A stretch of DNA of 64,000 bases from Leptospiraceae bacterium UBA2033 (GCA_002333425.1 DDBL01000133.1:5740-69739), one strand, 5' to 3'. Positions 4,352 through 63,974 are shown, numbered from the stretch's first letter. Numbers and translations: made by a program. Notes: a model not told the origin generated them from the letters alone.

Positions 4352-4900
4352 ATGCCTACCATCTTTTCTCATGGCATTGCTGCATTATCCGCAGCGAGTA
4401 TTTTTAAAACTAAATTTGATAAATCGAAGTTTTACTTACTTGTATTATTTTGTTCTTTGATTCCTGATGCTGATGTAATTGCTTTTCCGTTAGGTATTCC
4501 GTATGCACATTGGTTGGGGCATAGAGGGATTACCCACTCGATTTTATTTTCAGTTCTATTTCCTATACCAATTTTATTTATTTTTTATCGTTTTGTTCCA
4601 GTGTTTACACTTCGTTACCTGCTATTATGGTTTGTGTTTTTTTTATCTACGTTATCTCATGCGCTTTTGGATGCACTTACGAATGGAGGACTTGGAGTTT
4701 GTTTGTATTGTCCTTTTAATGTCGATCGATTTTTCTTTGACTTTAGACCAATTCAAGTTTCTCCTATTGGTAAACGATTTTTTTCAGAAGCAGGTCTTCG
4801 TGTTTTACAATCTGAATTTGTTTGGATTTGGATTCCTTCTATTATATTTTTTGGTGTATCAAATTTTCTCAAACTAATACTGGATCAAAGAAGAAAGTAA
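4352..4900 (+). CDS. Membrane-bound metal-dependent hydrolase, YdjM/YbcI (DUF457) family
   Basis: 182 aa and multi-TM. It has N-terminal FSHG, PDADV and GHRGITHS motifs typical of DUF457. It starts 1 nt after the upstream stop. Confidence 0.7.
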   Translation: MPTIFSHGIAALSAASIFKTKFDKSKFYLLVLFCSLIPDADVIAFPLGIPYAHWLGHRGITHSILFSVLFPIPILFIFYRFVPVFTLRYLLLWFVFFLSTLSHALLDALTNGGLGVCLYCPFNVDRFFFDFRPIQVSPIGKRFFSEAGLRVLQSEFVWIWIPSIIFFGVSNFLKLILDQRRK

Positions 4901-4949: not shown

Positions 4950-4974
4950 ATAAAGTTATAGATAAGTTGTAATT

Positions 4975-6252
4975 CTAGAACGAAGCCTGGAAACGAAAGT
5001 TAAATAATGAATTTGTTCCCATTTGAGGACCATTTAAGTGTTGGTAAATTGGTTTTCCAATTTCAAACCCAGCTTTCATTTTTTCAGAAAAAGAGGGAAA
5101 ATAGAAGTTAACCCCTCCTAATAAATCTATCCTTCTTCCTCCTTGTCGATTTGGATCATTTTGTGGATCCATCGTTGGGTCTAGGTTTGGATCGGCTCCT
5201 GATATATTGTCCCATTTAGAGGACGTTATGCGCAATGTAGGAGCAAGCCAATTAAGTAAAAGATAAGAAGTCCACAGTGAAAATTCATAACGATTTCCGA
5301 ATCGATACCCATTGTCATTTTTACCATTTCGAAGTGTAACTTGAACAAAACTACCTAGTGAAAATTTTTCTTTTTTGAATATATAGCTAATTGCTGGAAT
5401 TGTATTATAGGTTCCTGTTCCCATTTGCATATTGTAGGGTGATTTTACTTTTCCCATCAGAGGCATTGTATTTTTTTCATCAATAGATCCTGTTGGTATT
5501 GTAATTCCTAACTGAACATTGATAGTATGGGATTCTTTTTCTAATAATTTATGAGCGAGTGTGAGTCCTATATCTCCAATTCCTTGTGTTCTCATAAATG
5601 ATTTTTCTAAATTTCCTGAGATCATCTGCATACTATTATTCATATAAGGTAGCATAATCATGATTGCTGTTTTGTCTGATATATTTTTCATGAGGCTAAT
5701 CATTGTCATCTCCATCTTCATCGCTACAGGCATAGACATATACCGATAGGAATTTGGATTGAGAGAGGCTACGTAGTATGAAGGTAAAGGATCTGGTGTC
5801 GTTGAAGTATTGGTCGTTGTTCCTGAGTGATCATGAATAGCCCCTGTCCCTAACTGGCTGGATGGAATTGAGCCTATTGTAGGATTATATTCAATACCCG
5901 CTAGATATTTATTTGGATCTTCTACGTTATTTCCATTGTAAAGAGAACGCATATCCATTTGCATATACATATAATCTACCATCCAATCATTCGAATTGTG
6001 TATATGGGGAAGCATTAGCCCAGCCGGGGTCATCATTGGCTCCGAATGTATATGCGGATTACTTGGCGTAACTGCTTTCTCCTTTGTGGTTTTTGTTTCT
6101 TCTAATTGTTTGACCGTAGATTTTGATTCGTCTTGGTGTTGCGGATATTTGTGGTTATGCCCTTCATGGCTTTGTCCCAGTAAAGAAAAACACGAAAGTA
6201 TGAGAATGTAACCCAAGTATATTATGGTTCGATACATTTTTTTTTGTAACAT
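4975..6252 (-). CDS. Outer-membrane beta-barrel protein with His/Met-rich N-terminal region
   Basis: Has a signal peptide; start chosen at MLQKKMYRT (6252). The mature N-terminus is HEGHNHKYPQHQ...HIHSEPMMTPAGLMLPHIHN...MYMQMDM. The body alternates in beta-strand fashion and ends with C-terminal ...FRFQASF. Confidence 0.65.
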   Translation of the reverse strand: MLQKKMYRTIIYLGYILILSCFSLLGQSHEGHNHKYPQHQDESKSTVKQLEETKTTKEKAVTPSNPHIHSEPMMTPAGLMLPHIHNSNDWMVDYMYMQMDMRSLYNGNNVEDPNKYLAGIEYNPTIGSIPSSQLGTGAIHDHSGTTTNTSTTPDPLPSYYVASLNPNSYRYMSMPVAMKMEMTMISLMKNISDKTAIMIMLPYMNNSMQMISGNLEKSFMRTQGIGDIGLTLAHKLLEKESHTINVQLGITIPTGSIDEKNTMPLMGKVKSPYNMQMGTGTYNTIPAISYIFKKEKFSLGSFVQVTLRNGKNDNGYRFGNRYEFSLWTSYLLLNWLAPTLRITSSKWDNISGADPNLDPTMDPQNDPNRQGGRRIDLLGGVNFYFPSFSEKMKAGFEIGKPIYQHLNGPQMGTNSLFNFRFQASF

Positions 6253-6263
6253 AATTTTTTCCT

Positions 6264-6692
6264 TTATTGATTTGAACCACCGGCAATCCAACAATAGACT
6301 GCTTCATTGATTTGCCGATTGGAATTGCCTGCCATTGCGCCTGTTGTAATTGCAGTATACATTCTGCTAGAACAAGGATTTCCAGGATTTGTAAATGCCT
6401 TAGTTGAATTATAGTCTGTTATATCCAAACCAGATTGTTGTGTGGCTCTAGTATGACAGCCTGACGTTGCGCAACTAACGTTTGTTCCTGCGGCGGCTAA
6501 CTTACTAAAACTAGGAGAGGTTGTACAGTTAAAGCTAGAAGTGCAAGAAGAGGAAGGGATAGAGGAAGATGGTGTCGTTGCTTTTCCTGTATGGTTTAAA
6601 ACTGCTAATGCCAGAGCTTGTTTGTTTGTATTATCATTTGTTTCGTTGCAGTTTACGGCTAATGCAAGTAAAATGGGAATTAGTATTTTCAT
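6264..6692 (-). CDS. Lipoprotein with putative c-type-cytochrome-like (PSCyt-like) domain, CX4CH motif
   Basis: True start MKILIPILLALAVNC at 6692 with RBS GGAGA. It contains the motif SCATSGCH and a C-terminus INEAVYCWIAGG resembling planctomycete-type cytochrome domains. The ORF-track N-terminus (6693-6863) runs through a repeat element. Confidence 0.5.
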   Translation of the reverse strand: MKILIPILLALAVNCNETNDNTNKQALALAVLNHTGKATTPSSSIPSSSCTSSFNCTTSPSFSKLAAAGTNVSCATSGCHTRATQQSGLDITDYNSTKAFTNPGNPCSSRMYTAITTGAMAGNSNRQINEAVYCWIAGGSNQ

Positions 6693-6728
6693 GTCTATTT
6701 CTCCTGATGGACTAAATTTACATATATA

Positions 6729-6804
6729 TGCCACGGAGGCACTGAGTCGCAGAGGGTTGAAATATATATTTATCAAACTCTCCGTGCCTTTGTGCCTCTG
6801 TGGC
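6729..6804. repeat. Inverted pair of TTGCCAC + triple-octamer elements
   Basis: The left arm is TGCCACGGAGGCACTGAGTCGCAGAG (6729-6754). The right arm is CTCCGTGCCTTTGTGCCTCTGTGGCA (6779-6804, reverse orientation). The pair is intergenic inside the minus-strand operon. Confidence 0.8.
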
Positions 6805-6816
6805 AAAATTAATGGT

Positions 6817-8169
6817 TTAATGGGAATGATTGGATGCAGATCCCAGTGTATGAAAGAAAACATTACTAAAACTTCCTTTCAATTCTAGTCTTTGTGTTAC
6901 TGCATTTGTTTCAGAATCTACAGTATACAAAATTCCATCTCCAGCAGGAACGAATATATGCATCATGGAGTCATGATTTACAGATGCAAGATGTCTATGT
7001 CCTGTTTTTGCATCTCCTACTGTGACTTGAGCTAGGAGTGTAAGACTTGGAAGGTTAGACGAATCATAAACTAAAAGTACATTTTGTTTTAAATTGGTAA
7101 CTTGATTGCCTGAACCTGAAAGTGCTGATGCGACATACAAGCGTTTACCGTCAGAGCTAAACATCATATGATCGGGGCTAAGGTCTGTTACATCTATAGT
7201 TGAAAACACATGAGTAGATGCATTTAAAATAGTTACTTTTCCTACAACATGGTTTGTGTCACTTGTTGTGTCTTTTCCTGGAATTGCAATGTATTGTCCA
7301 TTGGGAGATGCTGTTGACGGACCAGATTTTCCAGTAGCAATAGTTTCCATTGTTAGACTTGATGGGTTAACAGCGATTACACTTCCGGCAGATTGTGCGG
7401 ATATATATACTTTGCCAGAGACTGAAGAGTAACTAAAACCATGTGGTCCCGCTCCTGTTCCTAAATTTAGTGTGCTAATTACAGTCAGATAATTACTGCT
7501 AGTTGGTTCATTGTCAATTATAGAAATCGAATTGTCTGTGATATTACTAACAAACGCTCTCTTAGGACTTGTTGTAAAAATTGCTTTGTGATGTCCCTTA
7601 CCAACACATAGATGTTTGATTAAGCTTGCAGTATCTGCATCTGCTGCTCCTTTTACTCCATCTTGAATGACCGTAACAGAGGATACTCCAAGTGTATTAC
7701 ACGCATAATTAACATTATCCACACCTGCATTTCCATCATTCATTGTCCAAATTTTCCCATCTGGATCTTGGTAGACATGGACTGGACGACTTCCTGTGTC
7801 AATGTACTTCGCAAGTTTTGCTCCTGATGTTGCAATATTGATGACTGCAACTTTGTTTGAGTTTGTTAGGTTGGCGAAAATATGATCGTTCGTTGTAGCC
7901 TTAGAATCTCCAGGGTTTGAGTCTAACACAACGTTGCTTATAAAAGTATTTGCACCGGAGTTATGGGCGATAACGCTTAGATAGGGCATCGTTGTGTCTA
8001 GATTCGGAACAAACAGGTAGGAAGAATTACTGATTGTTTTGGGAATTAAACCTGCCAGACCAAGGATTGTTTGGTTGTTATTATTTGTATTTTTTTTCTC
8101 AGATCCTGTAAAGGTAAGGCTACAGGATATACTTTGTAGAATGAGCAGTGCTATTAATATTGGTTTCAT
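6817..8169 (-). CDS. Beta-propeller (YVTN/lactonase-like repeat) lipoprotein
   Basis: Start MKPILIALLILQSISC at 8169 with RBS GAGGAG. Periodic ~40-aa repeats are rich in G/S/T/V (e.g. ...GKIWTMNDGN..., ...GKVYISAQSAG..., ...GKRLYVASALSG...). The C-terminus is SNHSH. Confidence 0.6.
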   Translation of the reverse strand: MKPILIALLILQSISCSLTFTGSEKKNTNNNNQTILGLAGLIPKTISNSSYLFVPNLDTTMPYLSVIAHNSGANTFISNVVLDSNPGDSKATTNDHIFANLTNSNKVAVINIATSGAKLAKYIDTGSRPVHVYQDPDGKIWTMNDGNAGVDNVNYACNTLGVSSVTVIQDGVKGAADADTASLIKHLCVGKGHHKAIFTTSPKRAFVSNITDNSISIIDNEPTSSNYLTVISTLNLGTGAGPHGFSYSSVSGKVYISAQSAGSVIAVNPSSLTMETIATGKSGPSTASPNGQYIAIPGKDTTSDTNHVVGKVTILNASTHVFSTIDVTDLSPDHMMFSSDGKRLYVASALSGSGNQVTNLKQNVLLVYDSSNLPSLTLLAQVTVGDAKTGHRHLASVNHDSMMHIFVPAGDGILYTVDSETNAVTQRLELKGSFSNVFFHTLGSASNHSH

Positions 8170-8210
8170 AAAAATCTCCTCAGATTTCAATGGCTAATTT
8201 TATTTAGCCG

Positions 8211-42854: not shown

Positions 42855-42939
<85 letters not shown>

Positions 42940-49454: not shown

Positions 49455-49642
49455 AGTTTTACCATTTTACGAATAAAAGAACACAAAAATAGAGGGAAAG
49501 GAAATAAATTTCAACCATAATTAAAAAAAACCGTAATTACAAAACAGAAATATTTCTTTTTTATTCTTAAAATACTCTGTTTACAACCTTGCATTTATTA
49601 TCGACATCTAATAGTTCATATTATACAACATGCAAAACTAAT

Positions 49643-49678
49643 TTATCGGTGCTTTCGGTGTAATCGTTGGTAATCTTT
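49643..49678 (-). repeat. ATTACCAA + CACCGA-word element (reverse orientation)
   Basis: The reverse complement reads AAAGATTACCAACGATTACACCGAAAGCACCGATAA. It is related to 19474-19500. Confidence 0.6.
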
Positions 49679-49755
49679 GATTTTAAAAAAGTTGTAGAAT
49701 TTATTCGTTGCTATGAAGTATTGAGAGTCGATTAGACATAATAGGGAAATAAAGT

Positions 49756-50797: not shown

Positions 50798-52456
50798 ATG
50801 AATAACTTTACAGAATCAATCTTAAAAGATTTGGAAAACAAAGAAAATGGATCTTTCCAAATTAAAAATGAAAATAACCATGCTGTATTATCCGTTTACA
50901 AAGCCGGCAAAAATGGAAAACCTGTAACTAGGCAAGATGTATTTCAGAGATTGAAACTGTTTAATATTGAAGGTTATGATAGAGCACAAGTCGAAGTTAT
51001 TGTTGCAAATGCAGACGGGAAAGACCATCCAATTGCAGCTTGGACAGGTGGAAATCCAGTTGATTCAAAGTTAGACATAGAAATTTCTCCTGATAAAATG
51101 GAGGCTTATATCATTATTTACCCCGCATTACATGGTGGAAATACTTTAAAAAAAGAAGATGTAATTCAGTCTTTAAAATCAAATGGAGTTTTTTTCGGAT
51201 TAAAAGAAGATGTAATTTCTCATTTACTGGACAATCAGAAATTTTTTATCAAAACGTTAGTTGCCCAAGGTATAAAACCAACCCCTACAATCAATGGTTA
51301 TATAAAAGTTTTATTTGAACCCCATAACAAACCAAATCTACATGAAGACGAAAAAGGTAGAGTAGACTTTAAAGATATTCAAGTTATTAAAAATACCAAA
51401 AAAGGCGAAATTTTAGCAGAAAAAATAGAACCAAAACTTGGAACTGCTGGCAAAAATGTTTTTAGTGAGGAAGTTCCTATCGACAAACCAATAGAAGGAA
51501 ATTGGAAAACAGGGGCTAATTGTGAGTTGTCGGAAGATTCTAAAAAGTTAAAAGCATCTATTGCCGGAAGACCCATTTTAGAAAGAGATGGAACAATTCG
51601 TGTGGATGAAGTTTGTTACTTAGAGAATGTAGATTATTCAACGGGTAATGTTGATTTTCCGGGAACGATTATTGTGGACGGAACTGTTGCGGATAACTTT
51701 ACTCTTCGCACAAAAGGTTCCCTTATCATTAAAAAAAGTGTAGGGCGAGTTTTTCTCTATGCGGATAGAGATATTGTTTTATCCGGTGGGGTGATGGGGC
51801 GAAATGGTGGAGTTATCGAATCTAAAGCAGATGTATATGCTCGTTTTGTAGAGCAGGGAAATATTAAGGCAGGAAAAAGTATTTTCATCGAAGAGGCATC
51901 CATGCATTCAGAGTTAGTTGCAGGGGATTCTATCACTATCAAAGGTGGAAGAGGAGAGCTTATCGGCGGAGAGGCAATTGCAGGAAAAATGATTTCTGTT
52001 AGTAAACTAGGCGCAGTTGTGGAAACTCGAACTGAGTTAATTGTTGGTTTGCCTCCAGAAATTTTAGAAGAGCTTCGCAAAATGAAAGAAGAAATTTTCT
52101 CTCAGGAAGAAATTTTAAAAAAAGTAAAACAGAGTATGTCAAAACTCATAGACCCGAAAAAAGAAAACACTCCTGATGAGAAACAAATGCTCATTAAACT
52201 CTACGAAGTCGAAAAAAAATATACCGACCTACTTGCAAATACTAAAACTCAATACGAAACGTTAGTTGTTAGTTATGAGCCCGCAGGATCTGCCTACGTG
52301 GAAGTGGAAAAAAGTCTTTTTCCAAAAGTAGCTATTAATTTAGGAAAAGGAAAAATTTATAATTCAGAGCTTAAAACTTATAACGGAAGATGTTTTATCT
52401 ACAATAACGAAGATGGAATTCCTACTAGAACTACGGTTCCACCTAAAAAAATATAA
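50798..52456 (+). CDS. FapA (DUF342) family protein
   Basis: A beta-helical repeat region GNVDFPGTIIVDGTVADNFTLRTKGSLII... is followed by a coiled-coil tail, as in FapA/DUF342. Confidence 0.65.
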   Translation: MNNFTESILKDLENKENGSFQIKNENNHAVLSVYKAGKNGKPVTRQDVFQRLKLFNIEGYDRAQVEVIVANADGKDHPIAAWTGGNPVDSKLDIEISPDKMEAYIIIYPALHGGNTLKKEDVIQSLKSNGVFFGLKEDVISHLLDNQKFFIKTLVAQGIKPTPTINGYIKVLFEPHNKPNLHEDEKGRVDFKDIQVIKNTKKGEILAEKIEPKLGTAGKNVFSEEVPIDKPIEGNWKTGANCELSEDSKKLKASIAGRPILERDGTIRVDEVCYLENVDYSTGNVDFPGTIIVDGTVADNFTLRTKGSLIIKKSVGRVFLYADRDIVLSGGVMGRNGGVIESKADVYARFVEQGNIKAGKSIFIEEASMHSELVAGDSITIKGGRGELIGGEAIAGKMISVSKLGAVVETRTELIVGLPPEILEELRKMKEEIFSQEEILKKVKQSMSKLIDPKKENTPDEKQMLIKLYEVEKKYTDLLANTKTQYETLVVSYEPAGSAYVEVEKSLFPKVAINLGKGKIYNSELKTYNGRCFIYNNEDGIPTRTTVPPKKI

Positions 52457-52482
52457 ATTTTGTGTAACTACTCAGTGTGGTT

Positions 52483-52761
52483 TGCCACAGAGGCACAAAG
52501 ACACTGAGAATTTTGGATTTTATGCGGACTCTGGAATTTGTACTTCGCCTTTAAGAAGAGGGGTTGTGTAAAAGCATTGCCACGGAGGCACAGAGTCGCA
52601 GAGAAATGCGGTTTCTTGGCATTCTGCGCTCAAAAATTTATGCTTTTACACAAACCCTCTATTATAGTAAAATAATAACTAAGACTAAATTACTGAAATT
52701 GGCAGTATTTTATTAAATAAACTCTCTTTGATTTTCTCCGTGCCTCAGCGCCTCTGTGGCA
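52483..52761. repeat. Cluster of TTGCCAC + triple-octamer elements (2 forward, 1 reverse) with an embedded 21-bp inverted repeat
   Basis: The units are 52483-52508 TGCCACAGAGGCACAAAGACACTGAG, 52578-52603 TGCCACGGAGGCACAGAGTCGCAGAG and 52736-52761 (reverse). The inverted repeat is AGAGGGGTTGTGTAAAAGCAT (52557-52577) paired with ATGCTTTTACACAAACCCTCT (52640-52660). Confidence 0.8.
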
Positions 52762-52805
52762 ATAACTTATGTTGTGTAGTTACAATTTTATTATTACAAC
52801 TTACT

Positions 52806-54266
52806 TCAAAAACATTTTTTACAAACTAACGAAGTTGGAAGCGCATAAATCCAAGTTTCCTCTCCCGATGTTTGGTAGGTTTGTTTTTGGTCTTCTGTAA
52901 GTGTAATAGTAAGAATTGGATAAATTGGGATTTCATTTTCTGTAGATGGGATTTCTGGGAAGATAATTTGATTAAGCGGCTTAGAATTATTATCCGCATT
53001 TGACTGTAAATGAAAGGTGAAACTTATATCTTTTCCTTTGGTAAATGGAACTCCCGTGCTAAGTAGGAATGGTCTGTAAAAATCAAAGTCAGATTCTTCT
53101 AAAAAGTTTACTCCAACTGGCGAGTCTTCTTTTTTGACAGCTAACATTTGGTCTCTTATTTGATTTCGGATATATGCCAATTGTTTTAGTTCATTCTCAA
53201 ATTCTGTGTTAAAACTTATCCAATGTTCCATCAAAATAGAAAAAGAATCTTCGTCTAGGTCAACGCTAAATTGAGTTAAAAAATACATTGCTAAAAAAGT
53301 TTCTTCCCTATTTAAACTTTTTATATCATTTAAGATATTTTTATAAAAGTTAGCAAGTCGTTCATCGTTTAAAATTCCAATCGGAAATGGAGAGGTTGGG
53401 TTTAGGGCAAGTCTGGATTTTATTTCATCTGGAATTTTGTCCAAAGCAAGTAAATGAGAATTAGCCTCCGCAAACGCAATAGAATAAAAAACGCCACTGC
53501 CATAATAATCAGCAAAAATTTCCTCTGGACTTTGCCATAATTCTTGTTTGGAGAGATAATAAACTAATCCACGCCGGACAAATTCTTCCTGTAGATTTTT
53601 TTGTTCAGGTGATTCGCCTAATCCAAGTTTGCCCCAAATCGAATGGGGACGAATTCCTTCTGCTAGAGCGGTTAATGTGGATTCATCGCTCCGTAATATT
53701 TTTCCATCCTTGGATAGTAGAAAATCTTCGTAAATACCTTTTTGTATTTTGCTGCATATTGATTGGTTTGTGCGAAAACATTCTTGGTATTCTTGGATGA
53801 TTTGGGCAGAACGAATATGGGGTCTTTGAAGAGAAAATAAGAATGTCACAAATAGGAGAGAAGAAAAAAAAGCTGGCACAGTCAGTAACAGTCGAAAGAA
53901 CTTTTTCTCTTTAGAAAAATCTAGAAATAGTAAAAAGGAAATTACTAAAATTGGAAGAATAAGTAATAAACTTAGTTTAGACCAAAATTCATTTCCTGCG
54001 ATGAGATCTTGTTTTTTTAAACTACGGATGTATATAGGAAGAGCAAAACCAATGAAACTAAGGAGTATACTTTCCAAATGTTCGTCTATAAAAGAATTTA
54101 CCTTTTCGGTTGGGATTTCTTCAATGAGAGCATCTTTCTTTTTAGATAATTCTCGCTTCATTTCTTGAAATATTTCATTTTCTTTATCACTGGCAGCTAC
54201 TGTTTTTGTTGCACCTGGTTTTATGATGGGAGGAGAACTTGATTTTTTAGATGAATTATTCGGCAT
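52806..54266 (-). CDS. Hypothetical membrane protein (486 aa)
   Basis: Has a basic N-terminus, about 4 TM segments and a large C-terminal domain. I recognise no motif. Confidence 0.55.
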   Translation of the reverse strand: MPNNSSKKSSSPPIIKPGATKTVAASDKENEIFQEMKRELSKKKDALIEEIPTEKVNSFIDEHLESILLSFIGFALPIYIRSLKKQDLIAGNEFWSKLSLLLILPILVISFLLFLDFSKEKKFFRLLLTVPAFFSSLLFVTFLFSLQRPHIRSAQIIQEYQECFRTNQSICSKIQKGIYEDFLLSKDGKILRSDESTLTALAEGIRPHSIWGKLGLGESPEQKNLQEEFVRRGLVYYLSKQELWQSPEEIFADYYGSGVFYSIAFAEANSHLLALDKIPDEIKSRLALNPTSPFPIGILNDERLANFYKNILNDIKSLNREETFLAMYFLTQFSVDLDEDSFSILMEHWISFNTEFENELKQLAYIRNQIRDQMLAVKKEDSPVGVNFLEESDFDFYRPFLLSTGVPFTKGKDISFTFHLQSNADNNSKPLNQIIFPEIPSTENEIPIYPILTITLTEDQKQTYQTSGEETWIYALPTSLVCKKCF

Positions 54267-54400
54267 AGTATCTTACTCACTTTGAAAACTCTCTTTAATT
54301 CTGTCAAGTTAAGGATTTTTCACCACATTATGTTGCGCCCCAAGAAGCAACATTGAGTTTAAACACTGATTAACACGGATGGTTTTAATAAATCAATATT

Positions 54401-54437
54401 TTATGCGTGTCCATAGCGTTAGCGTGTGGTAATCTTT
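54401..54437 (-). repeat. ATTACCAC + CACGC-word element (reverse orientation)
   Basis: The reverse complement reads AAAGATTACCACACGCTAACGCTATGGACACGCATAA. Confidence 0.55.
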
Positions 54438-54478
54438 AAATTTTACATTGACTATTGTAACTTTTTTTACAAAAAATC

Positions 54479-58748: not shown

Positions 58749-59195
58749 TTAATCTTTTTTTTGAATTCTAAATCGAACTGTTCTATTTTTAGGGTCAAAT
58801 TTATCTTTTCCTAAGTGTTGATTTGGCTCTGGATCAGCAATTGCCTTTAATTTGGTTTCTTCTATTCCATTTTCAAAGAGCAGTTGTTTAATCGAATTTG
58901 CTCTTCCTTGTGATATAAGTTTCCTATTTTCAGGAAGTTCTGTTGCATCCATTTTCCCGCGAATTTCGATATAGTAATCACTTCCTAAACTTTGGCTAAT
59001 CTCTCTTATCTGCTCACAGTATTTTTTACACCACTCTTTAAAATAGATTGGATTAACTTCATTTTGCCCTGCATAAAATCCTGAGAAGAATTCTGTTTCA
59101 GGATAATTGATTTGTTCTAGTTTTTGATTTTGTAGATAAATACAGTCAGAGAAAAAAAATAAAGACAACAAACTTCCAGCTAAGTAGGAGTGCAA
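58749..59195 (-). CDS. Putative lipoprotein with weak OmpA-like C-terminal domain
   Basis: The ORF runs to 59465, but residues 1-90 cross a repeat element. A TTG at 59195 would give (M)HSYLAGSLLSLFFFSDC. The C-terminus is ...SQGRANSIKQLL...NRTVRFRI. The start is uncertain. Confidence 0.4.
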   Translation of the reverse strand: MHSYLAGSLLSLFFFSDCIYLQNQKLEQINYPETEFFSGFYAGQNEVNPIYFKEWCKKYCEQIREISQSLGSDYYIEIRGKMDATELPENRKLISQGRANSIKQLLFENGIEETKLKAIADPEPNQHLGKDKFDPKNRTVRFRIQKKD

Positions 59196-59250
59196 AGATT
59201 TTGTGAATAATGAGCAATCTTGTGACTGTGCAAAAACAAAGAAAATATCT

Positions 59251-59337
59251 CTCACAGAGGGCACGGAGTTCACAGAGAGTATTGATTTCGCCGGCGCTAT
59301 TGACTCTTCTCTCTGTGCTCTCAGTGTGCTCTGTGAG
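59251..59337. repeat. Inverted pair of triple-octamer elements
   Basis: CTCACAGAGGGCACGGAGTTCACAGAGAG (59251-59279) pairs with CTCTCTGTGCTCTCAGTGTGCTCTGTGAG (59309-59337). ATGCTTTTACACA follows, as at 52640. Confidence 0.75.
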
Positions 59338-59439
59338 AAAATCATGCTTTTACACAGTCCCAAGCTCAAGAATGAAATGTTTTTTTTTAATACAATCGTA
59401 ATACTGCTTAGTCTTAGATTCATACTCTCTCCTCTTTTT

Positions 59440-60972
59440 TTAGAATTTATACTCTGCACTGACAAAAGCCTCTCTGATATAACTTCCCATTCGACTATCG
59501 TTTAATGCTTTTAGACCGTCGCCTGGCTGAAAATAACCAGAACGAAATAATAACTGAAAGTCGCTCAAAACATTCCAGCGAATATTTAAGTTGTATTCTT
59601 TTCCCAAGAAATTGGAAGTATTTTTACCGTATAAAAAATTAAAGTCGCGATTAATGCTCATTGTAGGTGCTTTGTTTGCATAAAGATGATAATACCCTAG
59701 TGTCAATTCAACCGGTCCCCAAACGATTATATTAGTAAATGCGCCTACTTCATATAAACCGCTCATTGTATTTGCGGTAAATAATGCGTATCCTCCAGTA
59801 AAGTCTAATGCAATATTTGAAATGGTAAAGTCAGAAAAAAGACCACGATACCCACTTCCTTTATAACTAGCTGGTACACCGTTTTTACTATAACCTGGTC
59901 TACCAGTTGTCCCAATTCCGATTAAGTTGAATTTGATTTGTGGATTATAGATATAGGAAAATTGTAAGTCCCAGAGTCCGCCGCTTATATTATAGTTTTT
60001 CCTTTCTTGGTAAATTTCATTTTCAGATAAATCTCTTTGTGTTCTAAGTGCTTTTACATTTCCGTGGTTGTAAATTCCATGAGCAATTATATTAAATGTT
60101 CCTAGATTCCATTCATTATAAACTCCATACCAAAATAGATTACCCGTTTCTCTAAACAAATCTGTTTGATCATTATCTGTTTGTGAGTAATTGTAAAGTT
60201 CTAATTTATAATTCGCCATTGGTAAAAATTTGGCTTTCAAAAAAACAACATTTACATTTTGTCTTTTCTCATTAAATCCATTTCCATCTAGATCAGCAGC
60301 AGTTCTTTCCCTTGTACGAATCCAACCACCTTCTAGAGTAAGTTTGTAGCTAGGAATTCCTTTTGTGAGAACAGCACCACTTCCAATTGCAAATACTAAT
60401 CGACCGAGGGCAGAAGAAAAAAACTGAATTCCATACCTGGAAGTAAAATCATATTCCTTTAACTTAAAATTGATGTACAAAAAGTTTGTTCGTAGGTTAA
60501 CGGGTGTTTGCTGTCCGAGTTCTCCACCTGTTCCACTTCCTAGAACTGCAGGATTGTTTCTGTCTGCATTAGAAATAGATTTTCCTCCAAAAGTCATATC
60601 CCCAATTTGAACACCCGCTAAACCATCAAAATACTTTGATGTGTAAAACTCTAAATTTAGTAATACTCTTGAATCAAAGTAATTTAGATTTTCTTTTTGT
60701 GGTGATAGAGTGCTTTGTTTGCCTGCCAATCTAGAGTTTAGCTCATTAGTAAGGAGTTCATTGTTTGCAGTATTTTGATTTGCAAATTCTAATTCTGGAT
60801 TGTAGATAGGATAGGTAGGAGTTTTGCGGATAAGCGGTGTATCCCTACCAAGTGCAAATCCACGAAATCGCATAGACCCAGTCATATTAAATTTGGTCTG
60901 CTGTTCTGCATCCTGTGAGTAAATAGAATAGATATTTAAGTTAATTAGAATTAGGATGAAAATAACTTTCAT
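59440..60972 (-). CDS. Outer-membrane beta-barrel protein (porin-like)
   Basis: Has a signal peptide, 510 aa of alternating strands and C-terminal ...SAEYKF. Confidence 0.6.
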   Translation of the reverse strand: MKVIFILILINLNIYSIYSQDAEQQTKFNMTGSMRFRGFALGRDTPLIRKTPTYPIYNPELEFANQNTANNELLTNELNSRLAGKQSTLSPQKENLNYFDSRVLLNLEFYTSKYFDGLAGVQIGDMTFGGKSISNADRNNPAVLGSGTGGELGQQTPVNLRTNFLYINFKLKEYDFTSRYGIQFFSSALGRLVFAIGSGAVLTKGIPSYKLTLEGGWIRTRERTAADLDGNGFNEKRQNVNVVFLKAKFLPMANYKLELYNYSQTDNDQTDLFRETGNLFWYGVYNEWNLGTFNIIAHGIYNHGNVKALRTQRDLSENEIYQERKNYNISGGLWDLQFSYIYNPQIKFNLIGIGTTGRPGYSKNGVPASYKGSGYRGLFSDFTISNIALDFTGGYALFTANTMSGLYEVGAFTNIIVWGPVELTLGYYHLYANKAPTMSINRDFNFLYGKNTSNFLGKEYNLNIRWNVLSDFQLLFRSGYFQPGDGLKALNDSRMGSYIREAFVSAEYKF

Positions 60973-63835: not shown

Positions 63836-63948
63836 ATTTATTGTTTAAAACAGGATTTATAACAAATAAACCAATTCCTATCTAAATGGCAACTAATATT
63901 ATTAAGTTTGCAAATTCACTCCTAGATACCAACATGGCTTAGGAATTT

Positions 63949-63974
63949 TGCCACAGAGACACAGAGGCACCGAG
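63949..63974 (+). repeat. TTGCCAC + triple-octamer element (single, forward)
   Basis: TGCCACAGAGACACAGAGGCACCGAG. Confidence 0.75.

Follow-up and report, generated by a model that had tools for sequence, protein, structure and literature searches.

What are the short inverted repeats that recur between genes in this stretch of a Leptospiraceae genome, and which gene do they belong with? Hairpin repeats that are dispersed through genomes are, as a rule, confined to one lineage and served by a tyrosine (RAYT) or DDE transposase. The window analyzed here, the whole 64-kb stretch (64,000 nt) of DNA from Leptospiraceae bacterium UBA2033, had received a first-pass annotation from its sequence, in which an intergenic repeat was described as REP/BIME-like and possibly a protein-binding array or a structured RNA. 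We compared the repeat with close relatives, with metagenome loci and with genomes across bacteria. The copies in the window are very probably gene-less members of a family of arms that bracket genes for a small protein, GxxExxY.

Results

Repeat arms and hairpins in the window

Scanning the window for arms, defined as at least two words of the form C[AG]C-N-[AG]AG at a spacing of 7–12 nt, returned eight three-word arms, starting at 6732 (+), 6780 (−), 52486 (+), 52581 (+), 52736 (−), 59253 (+), 59311 (−) and 63952 (+), and one weak two-word match. Block-shuffled versions of the window held 0.19 arms on average and two at most, and a stricter 14-mer pattern, TGCCACRGAGGCAC, matched seven times against 0.18 expected. 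These are the eight copies that the first-pass annotation had listed, each within a few bases of its position there. The anatomy is also the one it had read: a TTGCCAC head followed by three CACRGAG words at 8-nt spacing, giving an arm length of 29–30 nt for the three copies in the gap downstream of fapA. A profile built from the GxxExxY-adjacent arms of unrelated metagenome contigs recovered the same eight arms (E-values 1.5e-6 to 1.3e-3) and no others below E 1, the next match having an E-value of 1.9.

All copies are intergenic, as had been described, and they are laid out as two hairpins (6727–6808 and 59251–59337), a nested cluster (52459–52800) and a half element (63946–63974). A single arm consists of three direct words without a palindrome, and complementarity exists only between paired arms. 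The pairs are convergent with their heads outward (6732+ with 6780−, 59253+ with 59311−, and 52486+ or 52581+ with 52736−) and form long hairpin stems on folding, with z-scores between −6 and −8 for both strands; the arm at 63952+ stands alone in the window. With the arms, folds and intergenic sites all found, and gene callers seen to read through the hairpins (see below), the initial description of the repeat proved correct.

The first hairpin comprises a 5′ arm at 6727–6754 (+; head TATGCCAC followed by CACGGAG-G-CACTGAG-T-CGCAGAG; profile E 1.8e-4) and a 3′ arm at 6779–6808 (−; profile E 3e-6) around a 25-nt loop, with a fold z-score of −7.8. Its 3′ arm lies 11 nt past the stop of an upstream minus-strand gene (6817–8190), and the hairpin sits upstream of a lipoprotein gene (6264–6692). 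The hairpin near 59.3 kb (fold z −6.2) has a variant 5′ arm with 9-nt spacing and the head CTCAC (59251–59278, +; profile E 1.2e-3) and a 3′ arm at 59310–59337 (−; profile E 1.3e-3), directly outside which lies a module, ATGCTTTTACACAGT (59344–59358, −), that resembles one found in the fapA gap. The lone arm at 63946–63974 (+) has the best profile E-value in the window (1.5e-6); its partner, if any, would lie past the window end.

A nested element in the fapA gap

The nested cluster takes up 342 nt (52459–52800) of the 349-nt gap between fapA (50798–52456; Pfam FapA_N and FapA) and a convergent gene of 486 aa (52806–54266). The whole gap folds into a nested hairpin (z −7.5), in which an outer short inverted repeat and a stem formed by two arms, A and C, surround an inner hairpin closed by a second module. 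The outer repeat (TGTAACTACTCA, 52463–52474, +) pairs with 52773–52784 (−) and lengthens the A:C stem. Arm C (52734–52763, −; profile E 2.3e-5) is complementary at 83% to arm A (TTTGCCACAGAGGCACAAAGACACTGAGAA, 52481–52510, +; profile E 6.6e-6) and at 81% to arm B (TTGCCACGGAGGCACAGAGTCGCAGAGAAA, 52577–52606, +; profile E 3.6e-5). Arm B is extended outward by the second module, M2 (AGAGGGGTTGTGTAAAAGCAT, 52557–52577, +), which forms with M2′ (ATGCTTTTACACAAACCCTCT, 52640–52660, −) a 21-nt inverted repeat of 95% complementarity that closes the inner hairpin (52557–52660; fold z −7.7). Inside it, a one-word remnant of arm B's lost partner, TTCTGCGCTC (52622–52631, −), pairs with GAGTCGCAGAG in the predicted fold of 52550–52668.

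The second module had been annotated as a frequent companion of the arms. It occurs three times in the window as GTTGTGTAAAAGCAT (52563+, 52640− and 59344−) and its inverted repeat in the gap is clear, whereas as a loose 15-mer it has no significance by itself in the window. The further statement that the gap is made almost entirely of these modules was too strong, as arms and second modules cover only ~130 of its 349 nt.

The head TTGCCA at 52482–52511 resembles a sigma-70 −35 box (5/6 bases) that reads into the element, and a promoter scan paired it with GAGAAT 18 nt downstream (9/12 matches), probably by chance. The host is an uncultured member of the Leptospiraceae; its FapA is 82% identical to a protein from a Leptospiraceae MAG and about 49% identical to Leptospira proteins, and sequence of the window is present in wastewater and sludge metagenomes.

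Differences between close relatives

The JGI contig Ga0502764_0000305 (L224) matches the window at 90–95% nucleotide identity over 8 kb, with the same gene order. This relative has 16 nt in place of the 342-nt block, which is the presence/absence polymorphism that the first-pass annotation had advised looking for; being missing there, the block can be treated as one insertion-like unit. Where the window has 57 nt (49628–49684), the counterpart in the relative is 338 nt long and includes an entire hairpin of the CACGAAG type plus a further arm, and where the window has 135 nt with a possible variant hairpin (54308–54442), the relative has 37 nt. All three indels in the 8-kb comparison thus fall at stretches with hairpins or word arrays in one or other of the two genomes, two of them clearly and the third with some uncertainty. 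At each of these sites sequence was replaced without a clean insertion, and, the flanks being replaced, no insertion junction could be defined.

Two of these sites carry words that depart from the arm consensus. The stretch at 54308–54442, upstream of the 486-aa gene, has a head of the form TCACCAC...GTGGTAA and CACTGAT/CACGGAT-like words, folds weakly (z −1.8) and is matched by 37 unrelated nt in the relative; it may represent a diverged sub-family of the same hairpins. Arrays of CACCGAT/CACCGAG at ~10-nt spacing, which may be another word variant, occur at 49628–49684 in the window, where they appear as ATCGGTG...TCGGTG on the + strand and fall outside the arm definition, and at 4590–4620 and 5030–5065 in a more distant relative, L227. 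In L227 (5869–6541) and L225 (5502–6061), whose FapA proteins are 82–89% identical, a different set of genes follows fapA, either a HigB-like toxin and its HTH partner or a pair resembling Gp49. This spot is a variable region.

Arms bracket GxxExxY genes

In other genomes, arms that stand 350–600 nt apart enclose one ORF of ~125 aa, which matches TIGR04256 “GxxExxY protein” (1e-44) and PF13366 (PDDEXK_3; 2e-42). For a bias-free test, we picked 80 metagenome loci by the GxxExxY protein alone, in a search seeded with a 5-sequence protein alignment, and counted as testable the 67 genes flanked on both sides by 150 nt or more. A + arm upstream and a − arm downstream were present at 44 of the 67, one arm at 19 and neither at 4, which leaves 63 of 67 with at least one arm; the background in the same 80 loci was 0.12 arms per kb. 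Two of the four armless genes show variant words, such as CTCAGAG. A search for a RAYT or other cognate gene had been recommended at the outset: the arms do flank a gene, and it is this one, with no RAYT or other Y1 transposase seen between arms at the loci with arm-flanked ORFs.

The full unit, of ~440–550 bp, consists of a 5′ arm (head TTnGCCAC plus words), one ORF and an inverted 3′ arm. Three words per arm are the mode (93 of 126 arms; range 2–4), and 8 nt is the commonest spacing, with 9–11 nt in sub-families. A full cassette was found in the same wastewater study on a Leptospiraceae contig (L232), where genes for an acyltransferase and a protein of the PNP_UDP_1 family flank it. Its arms are 92–96% identical to those of the window, and most of arm A (52478–52504) matches its 5′ arm at 96% over 27 nt. 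The 64-kb window has no GxxExxY ORF, and its copies are therefore gene-less members of the family. Their loops show no similarity to one another, and a search of them for gene remnants gave only borderline matches of 10–13 nt, which we did not use as evidence.

Gene-less units were also found at L125 (1893–2800), where tandem empty units with a period of ~219 nt each retain the first codons of the nuclease gene. Because the 5′ end of the gene is kept, these are internal-deletion derivatives. Tandemly duplicated empty units, with a period of ~146 nt, also occur at L127 (48–900).

One might then regard the window copies as the inert remains of decayed cassettes that neither act nor serve a function themselves. 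The existence of deletion derivatives and the unrelated loops of the window copies would fit such decay. The arms of empty hairpins, however, stay near the consensus (E down to 1e-6), contigs from community DNA stack at the arms to 100–150-fold over single-copy depth and break there, and near-identical M2-plus-arm-B copies exist at other loci, all of which makes this explanation very improbable. Logan contigs of the DNA runs had low coverage and broke at the repeat, and no strain polymorphism was readable there.

A predicted minimal nuclease

Among 28 diverse GxxExxY sequences, D71, E81, K83, Q95 and Y99 are invariant, and we take these residues to be the D...ExK triad and QxxxY motif of RecB/Cas4-type nucleases. 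An AlphaFold (AF2) model of the protein has a pLDDT of 93 and the order H-H-E-E-E-H-E. We found no solved structure related to it by sequence, and the nearest folds identified by Foldseek, Cas4 SSO0001, lambda exonuclease and Bax1, are weak matches (E 4e-3, TM 0.5). By these features, GxxExxY is a minimal PD-(D/E)XK nuclease of the RecB/Cas4 type with its catalytic residues intact, and from its conserved residues the predicted nuclease looks active. With at least 7996 relatives, out of 8000 candidates searched, the family to which the arms are tied is among the largest of uncharacterized small proteins, and a 2012 survey of the PD-(D/E)XK superfamily listed it with unknown function.

Spread of the arms across bacteria

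A scan with the pattern TGCCACRGAGGCACNRAG over one genome per species (596 Gb) returned at least 115 stretches. By our own estimate several hundred single matches are possible by chance in 596 Gb, and most of the listed stretches have a second arm nearby in inverted orientation. The matches listed include Verrucomicrobiota, Acidobacteriota, Planctomycetota, Bacteroidota, Pseudomonadota (Beta- and Gammaproteobacteria), relatives of Geobacter, Chloroflexota, Spirochaetota, Calditrichia, Nitrospirae and others, and the arms are thus spread over at least ten phyla. Convergent pairs numbered 67 among the matches listed, with loops of 1–256 nt, in loci of 31–72% GC. Across all loci, + then − neighbors (158) were found far more often than − then + neighbors (26). 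Leptospiraceae, Verrucomicrobia and Acidobacteria share the ~30-nt end sequence nearly without change; an arm from Verrucomicrobiia (L039) differs from arm A of the window at one base in 27. Some contigs from viral collections also carry arm pairs.

Loop lengths are bimodal, at 0–150 nt and 350–600 nt, the short loops being empty hairpins. Other cargo consisted mostly of spurious high-GC ORFs and a few real genes, namely a VapBC-like pair and a two-gene unit (L131), each probably bracketed by two separate hairpins. The elements are delimited as TTnGCCAC...GTGGCnAA. Among 154 elements, no direct repeat of at least 3 nt at a fixed offset exceeded shuffled pairings, and the sole strong signal in this test for target-site duplication was the palindromic GC of the head. 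Some elements occupy orthologous positions in several related MAGs (L058, L121, L136), and many copies are therefore stably inherited.

At L137 (3726–7857), an empty hairpin (4971–5056) stands inside a dense array of ~18 tRNA genes, directly after one of them. A MAG labeled Heliobacteriaceae (L031, L054) has several hairpins at loci of 58–59% GC.

These results bear on the REP/BIME proposal of the first-pass annotation, in which a RAYT (Y1 transposase) would mobilize the repeats. Its descriptive half stands: the repeats are dispersed, intergenic and hairpin-forming, they occur in mosaic clusters and they vary between strains. The family identity does not, since single arms are direct word arrays without palindromes or a GTAG-type head, the arm sequence is common to many phyla, and the flanked gene, at 63 of 67 testable loci, is the PD-(D/E)XK gene and no RAYT. 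We therefore regard mobilization by a RAYT as scarcely credible.

The words, rather than a continuous helix, are constrained

Across 56 elements, the two arms covary: 103 doubly changed cells were counted against 42 in shuffles, and none of 500 shuffles reached the observed value. Word sub-families (CGCAGAG, CGCGGAG, CACGAAG, CGCGAAG and CTCAGAG) have the matching inverse on the opposite arm. Between words, the spacer base has no pairing partner in 22–25 of the 56 elements (about 40–45%) and word position 4 in 8–18 of 56. As the words covary while the spacer base is often unpaired, the constraint lies on the words and does not extend to a continuous helix.

This pattern can be set against the possibility that the arms act in RNA, as a long double-stranded stem over the ORF or short loop that serves as an RNase III substrate or regulates translation. 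The model for such a function is the intervening sequences of 23S rRNA. In Leptospira and other bacteria, ORF-bearing intervening sequences form a terminal-inverted-repeat stem around an ORF of ~120 aa and are tolerated in a transcribed region; their ORF family encodes a four-helix-bundle protein, not GxxExxY. The arms resemble them in placing an inverted-repeat stem around a small ORF in a transcribed region: metatranscriptome contigs show arms transcribed together with adjacent genes, and the predicted stems measure 25–30 bp. Cassette genes are co-directional with their neighbors in 38 of 45 cases upstream and 43 of 50 downstream, and are for this reason probably read from host promoters. 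In the L232 cassette, moreover, a GGAGG provided by the last word stands 5 nt ahead of the start codon. We considered the arm as a constant Shine–Dalgarno site and rejected it as a general feature, since the gap between arm and start codon ranges from 0 to over 30 nt; in many cassettes the start is preceded by a separate purine-rich stretch.

Several results speak against selection on an RNA stem. In 56 gene-bearing cassettes, sense-strand mismatches between arms showed no excess of the G-U type (52) over the A-C type (54), and spacer bases lack compensation. None of 40 cassette loci lies inside an rRNA gene. No Rfam family matched the arms in the window at gathering thresholds, at the locus up to E 10 or at 58 other loci. 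An RNA function of this kind is accordingly quite unlikely. Because the covariation sits on the words, with neither a G-U bias nor an Rfam match, the sequence pattern speaks for a protein that recognizes the words in DNA more than for an RNA helix under selection. Of the two functions first suggested for the repeat, a protein-binding array therefore fits the conserved words and often unpaired spacer, and a structured RNA is unsupported.

The Rfam matches that did occur in the window and the 58 other loci were only tRNAs, one Acido-Lenti-1 and one group II intron. In the window, a tRNA gene (42856–42939, −) was the sole match at gathering thresholds. The intron domain (RF00029, 58.8 bits) lies at 2359–2447 of L144, 1.9 kb from a GxxExxY cassette.

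Arm subtype and protein vary together. Mean protein identity was 0.579 within and 0.542 between arm subtypes, a difference reached in none of 1000 permutations. Subtype is independent of host GC, the CACnGAG class alone spanning 31–70% GC. Since subtype tracks protein similarity and not host composition, gene and arms travel as one unit.

Transcript boundaries and the order of events

The hairpins could also have come first. They would then be host-useful or neutral intergenic hairpins, comparable to REP/BIME repeats as sites for transcript ends, mRNA stability or protein binding, and a homing-type GxxExxY nuclease would have invaded their loops, making the empty hairpins its targets and not its derivatives. 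Empty hairpins are indeed commoner than gene-bearing units and far outnumber them, and the ORF sits exactly in the loop, with the 3′ arm usually starting 1–4 nt past the stop codon. The left flanks are mildly A-rich and the right flanks T-rich, the latter only mildly (36–40%) and from 6 nt after the stem.

Assembled RNA is also consistent with boundaries at the arms. At the first hairpin, the RNA contig of the upstream gene stops where the first arm meets the loop and that of the downstream gene starts at 6711, while a DNA contig of the same study (run X1) spans 6200–6806, through the + arm and loop and into the − arm. For the 486-aa gene, three runs have RNA contigs that stop at 52735–52748, whereas a DNA contig continues to 52670. 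The 59.3-kb hairpin carries no evidence on RNA ends, because both RNA and DNA contigs break at its arms. These contig ends come from an assembler and are a weak proxy for RNA ends; at two of the three sites they hint at transcript boundaries without establishing them. No consensus intrinsic terminator was found in 52300–52950, the block included.

The placement of elements within operons points the other way. In a Geobacteraceae MAG (L077, 678–5746), arms lie in the nuoCD|nuoE, nuoE|nuoF and nuoF|nuoG gaps, the last of which holds a full cassette; a strong terminator inside the nuo operon would be harmful. The empty units of L125 keep a piece of the gene and are hence deletion derivatives, and arm subtype follows the protein clade. 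Taken with these observations, an origin of the hairpins ahead of the nuclease is unlikely.

Discussion

The explanation that we prefer, and consider rather likely as a whole, is that the hairpins are non-autonomous derivatives of a selfish nuclease cassette whose words serve as protein-recognition sites. The full cassette consists of a 5′ arm, the GxxExxY ORF and an inverted 3′ arm, and the empty hairpin of the same arms around a loop of 1–150 nt, with at least some empty hairpins derived from gene-bearing units by internal deletion. In this model, the nuclease encoded by a cassette would recognize the word arrays, and the breaks that it makes would cause cassettes to be copied or moved and, in trans, empty hairpins as well. 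The relation of cassette to hairpin would then be a nuclease-driven counterpart of REPIN/RAYT or MITE/IS. Within the host, the elements lie between genes, mostly inside co-directional gene strings, are transcribed in neighboring mRNAs and may incidentally shape transcript ends. For the mechanism taken separately, with nuclease recognition of the arrays, spread as selfish DNA and non-autonomous empty hairpins, we see at best an even chance. The data show the anatomy, the association of gene and arms, the spread across phyla, the place of the window copies in the family and their presence or absence in relatives; the binding or cutting of arms by the nuclease and the mode of movement are things we infer. 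More tentative still, and in our view somewhat doubtful, is its broadest form: an undescribed, pan-bacterial selfish element in which the GxxExxY nuclease recognizes CACRGAG arrays and propagates a ~500-bp cassette and a far greater number of gene-less hairpins of 60–300 bp, spread by horizontal transfer across at least ten phyla, with ends of ~30 nt nearly constant in hosts of 31–72% GC.

Several observations weigh against the selfish cassette. The window has hairpins and no GxxExxY gene, no target-site duplication emerged from the 154 elements, and the polymorphic sites are replaced and not cleanly inserted. PD-(D/E)XK nucleases are not known to act as transposases by themselves, and the structural matches to GxxExxY are weak. 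Elements at orthologous sites in related MAGs indicate stable inheritance of many copies, and a conserved host factor could instead explain conservation of the arms across phyla.

Comparison with known systems places the arm family outside both REPIN/RAYT and MITE/IS, because its arms are non-palindromic, it lacks a Y1 or DDE enzyme, no target duplication was found and it is not lineage-specific. REPIN/REP-BIME repeats are short intergenic inverted doublets, many per genome and species-specific, with a repeat-flanked RAYT gene. The present family shares with them intergenic inverted doublets, hairpins, mosaics, strain variability and a single cognate gene flanked by the repeats. It differs in that this gene encodes a PD-(D/E)XK nuclease, whereas RAYT is a Y1 HUH enzyme; in its arm of tandem heptamer words, where a REP unit is a small palindrome with a GTAG-type head; and in occurring in at least ten phyla, while REPs are species- or genus-specific. 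Like MITEs and their parent IS, the family is small, ends in inverted repeats and has gene-less derivatives, formed by internal deletion (L125), that outnumber the autonomous form. Unlike them, it shows no detected target-site duplication, its parent has no DDE, serine or tyrosine transposase, and the whole autonomous unit measures only ~450–550 bp. Free-standing homing endonuclease genes, including those of PD-(D/E)XK type, are similar in being small nuclease ORFs between conserved genes and co-oriented with them, and the cassette gene, too, apparently has no promoter of its own. Homing genes, however, lack bracketing inverted word arrays and abundant gene-less hairpins, whereas cassette sites are many and unrelated.

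Our literature search, which covered the arm words, GxxExxY, the family accessions and the 23S rRNA intervening-sequence proteins, found no account of the arms or of GxxExxY gene context; the TIGR04256 curators' notes may hold one. If the nuclease acts on the arms, this would give a function to the GxxExxY/PF13366 family, introduce a new kind of enzyme among mobile elements that scatter hairpins through genomes and provide a very small, sequence-programmed DNA-recognition module.

The hairpins also have practical consequences. They break metagenome assemblies, account for intergenic indels between close relatives and cause false N-terminal ORF extensions in public annotations. Such read-through had been noted in the first-pass annotation and is present at two hairpins of the window. 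The lipoprotein gene at 6264–6692 encodes 142 aa, and public collections mostly hold a 199-aa form that runs through the first hairpin; the ORF at 58749–59423 is called through the 59.3-kb hairpin. The 199-aa call (6264–6863, against the likely 142-aa form) and a public 224-aa OmpA-like call of a second lipoprotein-like gene through the hairpin at 58749–59465 look like false N-terminal extensions. The RNA contig that starts at 6711 begins 19 nt before the ATG at 6692.
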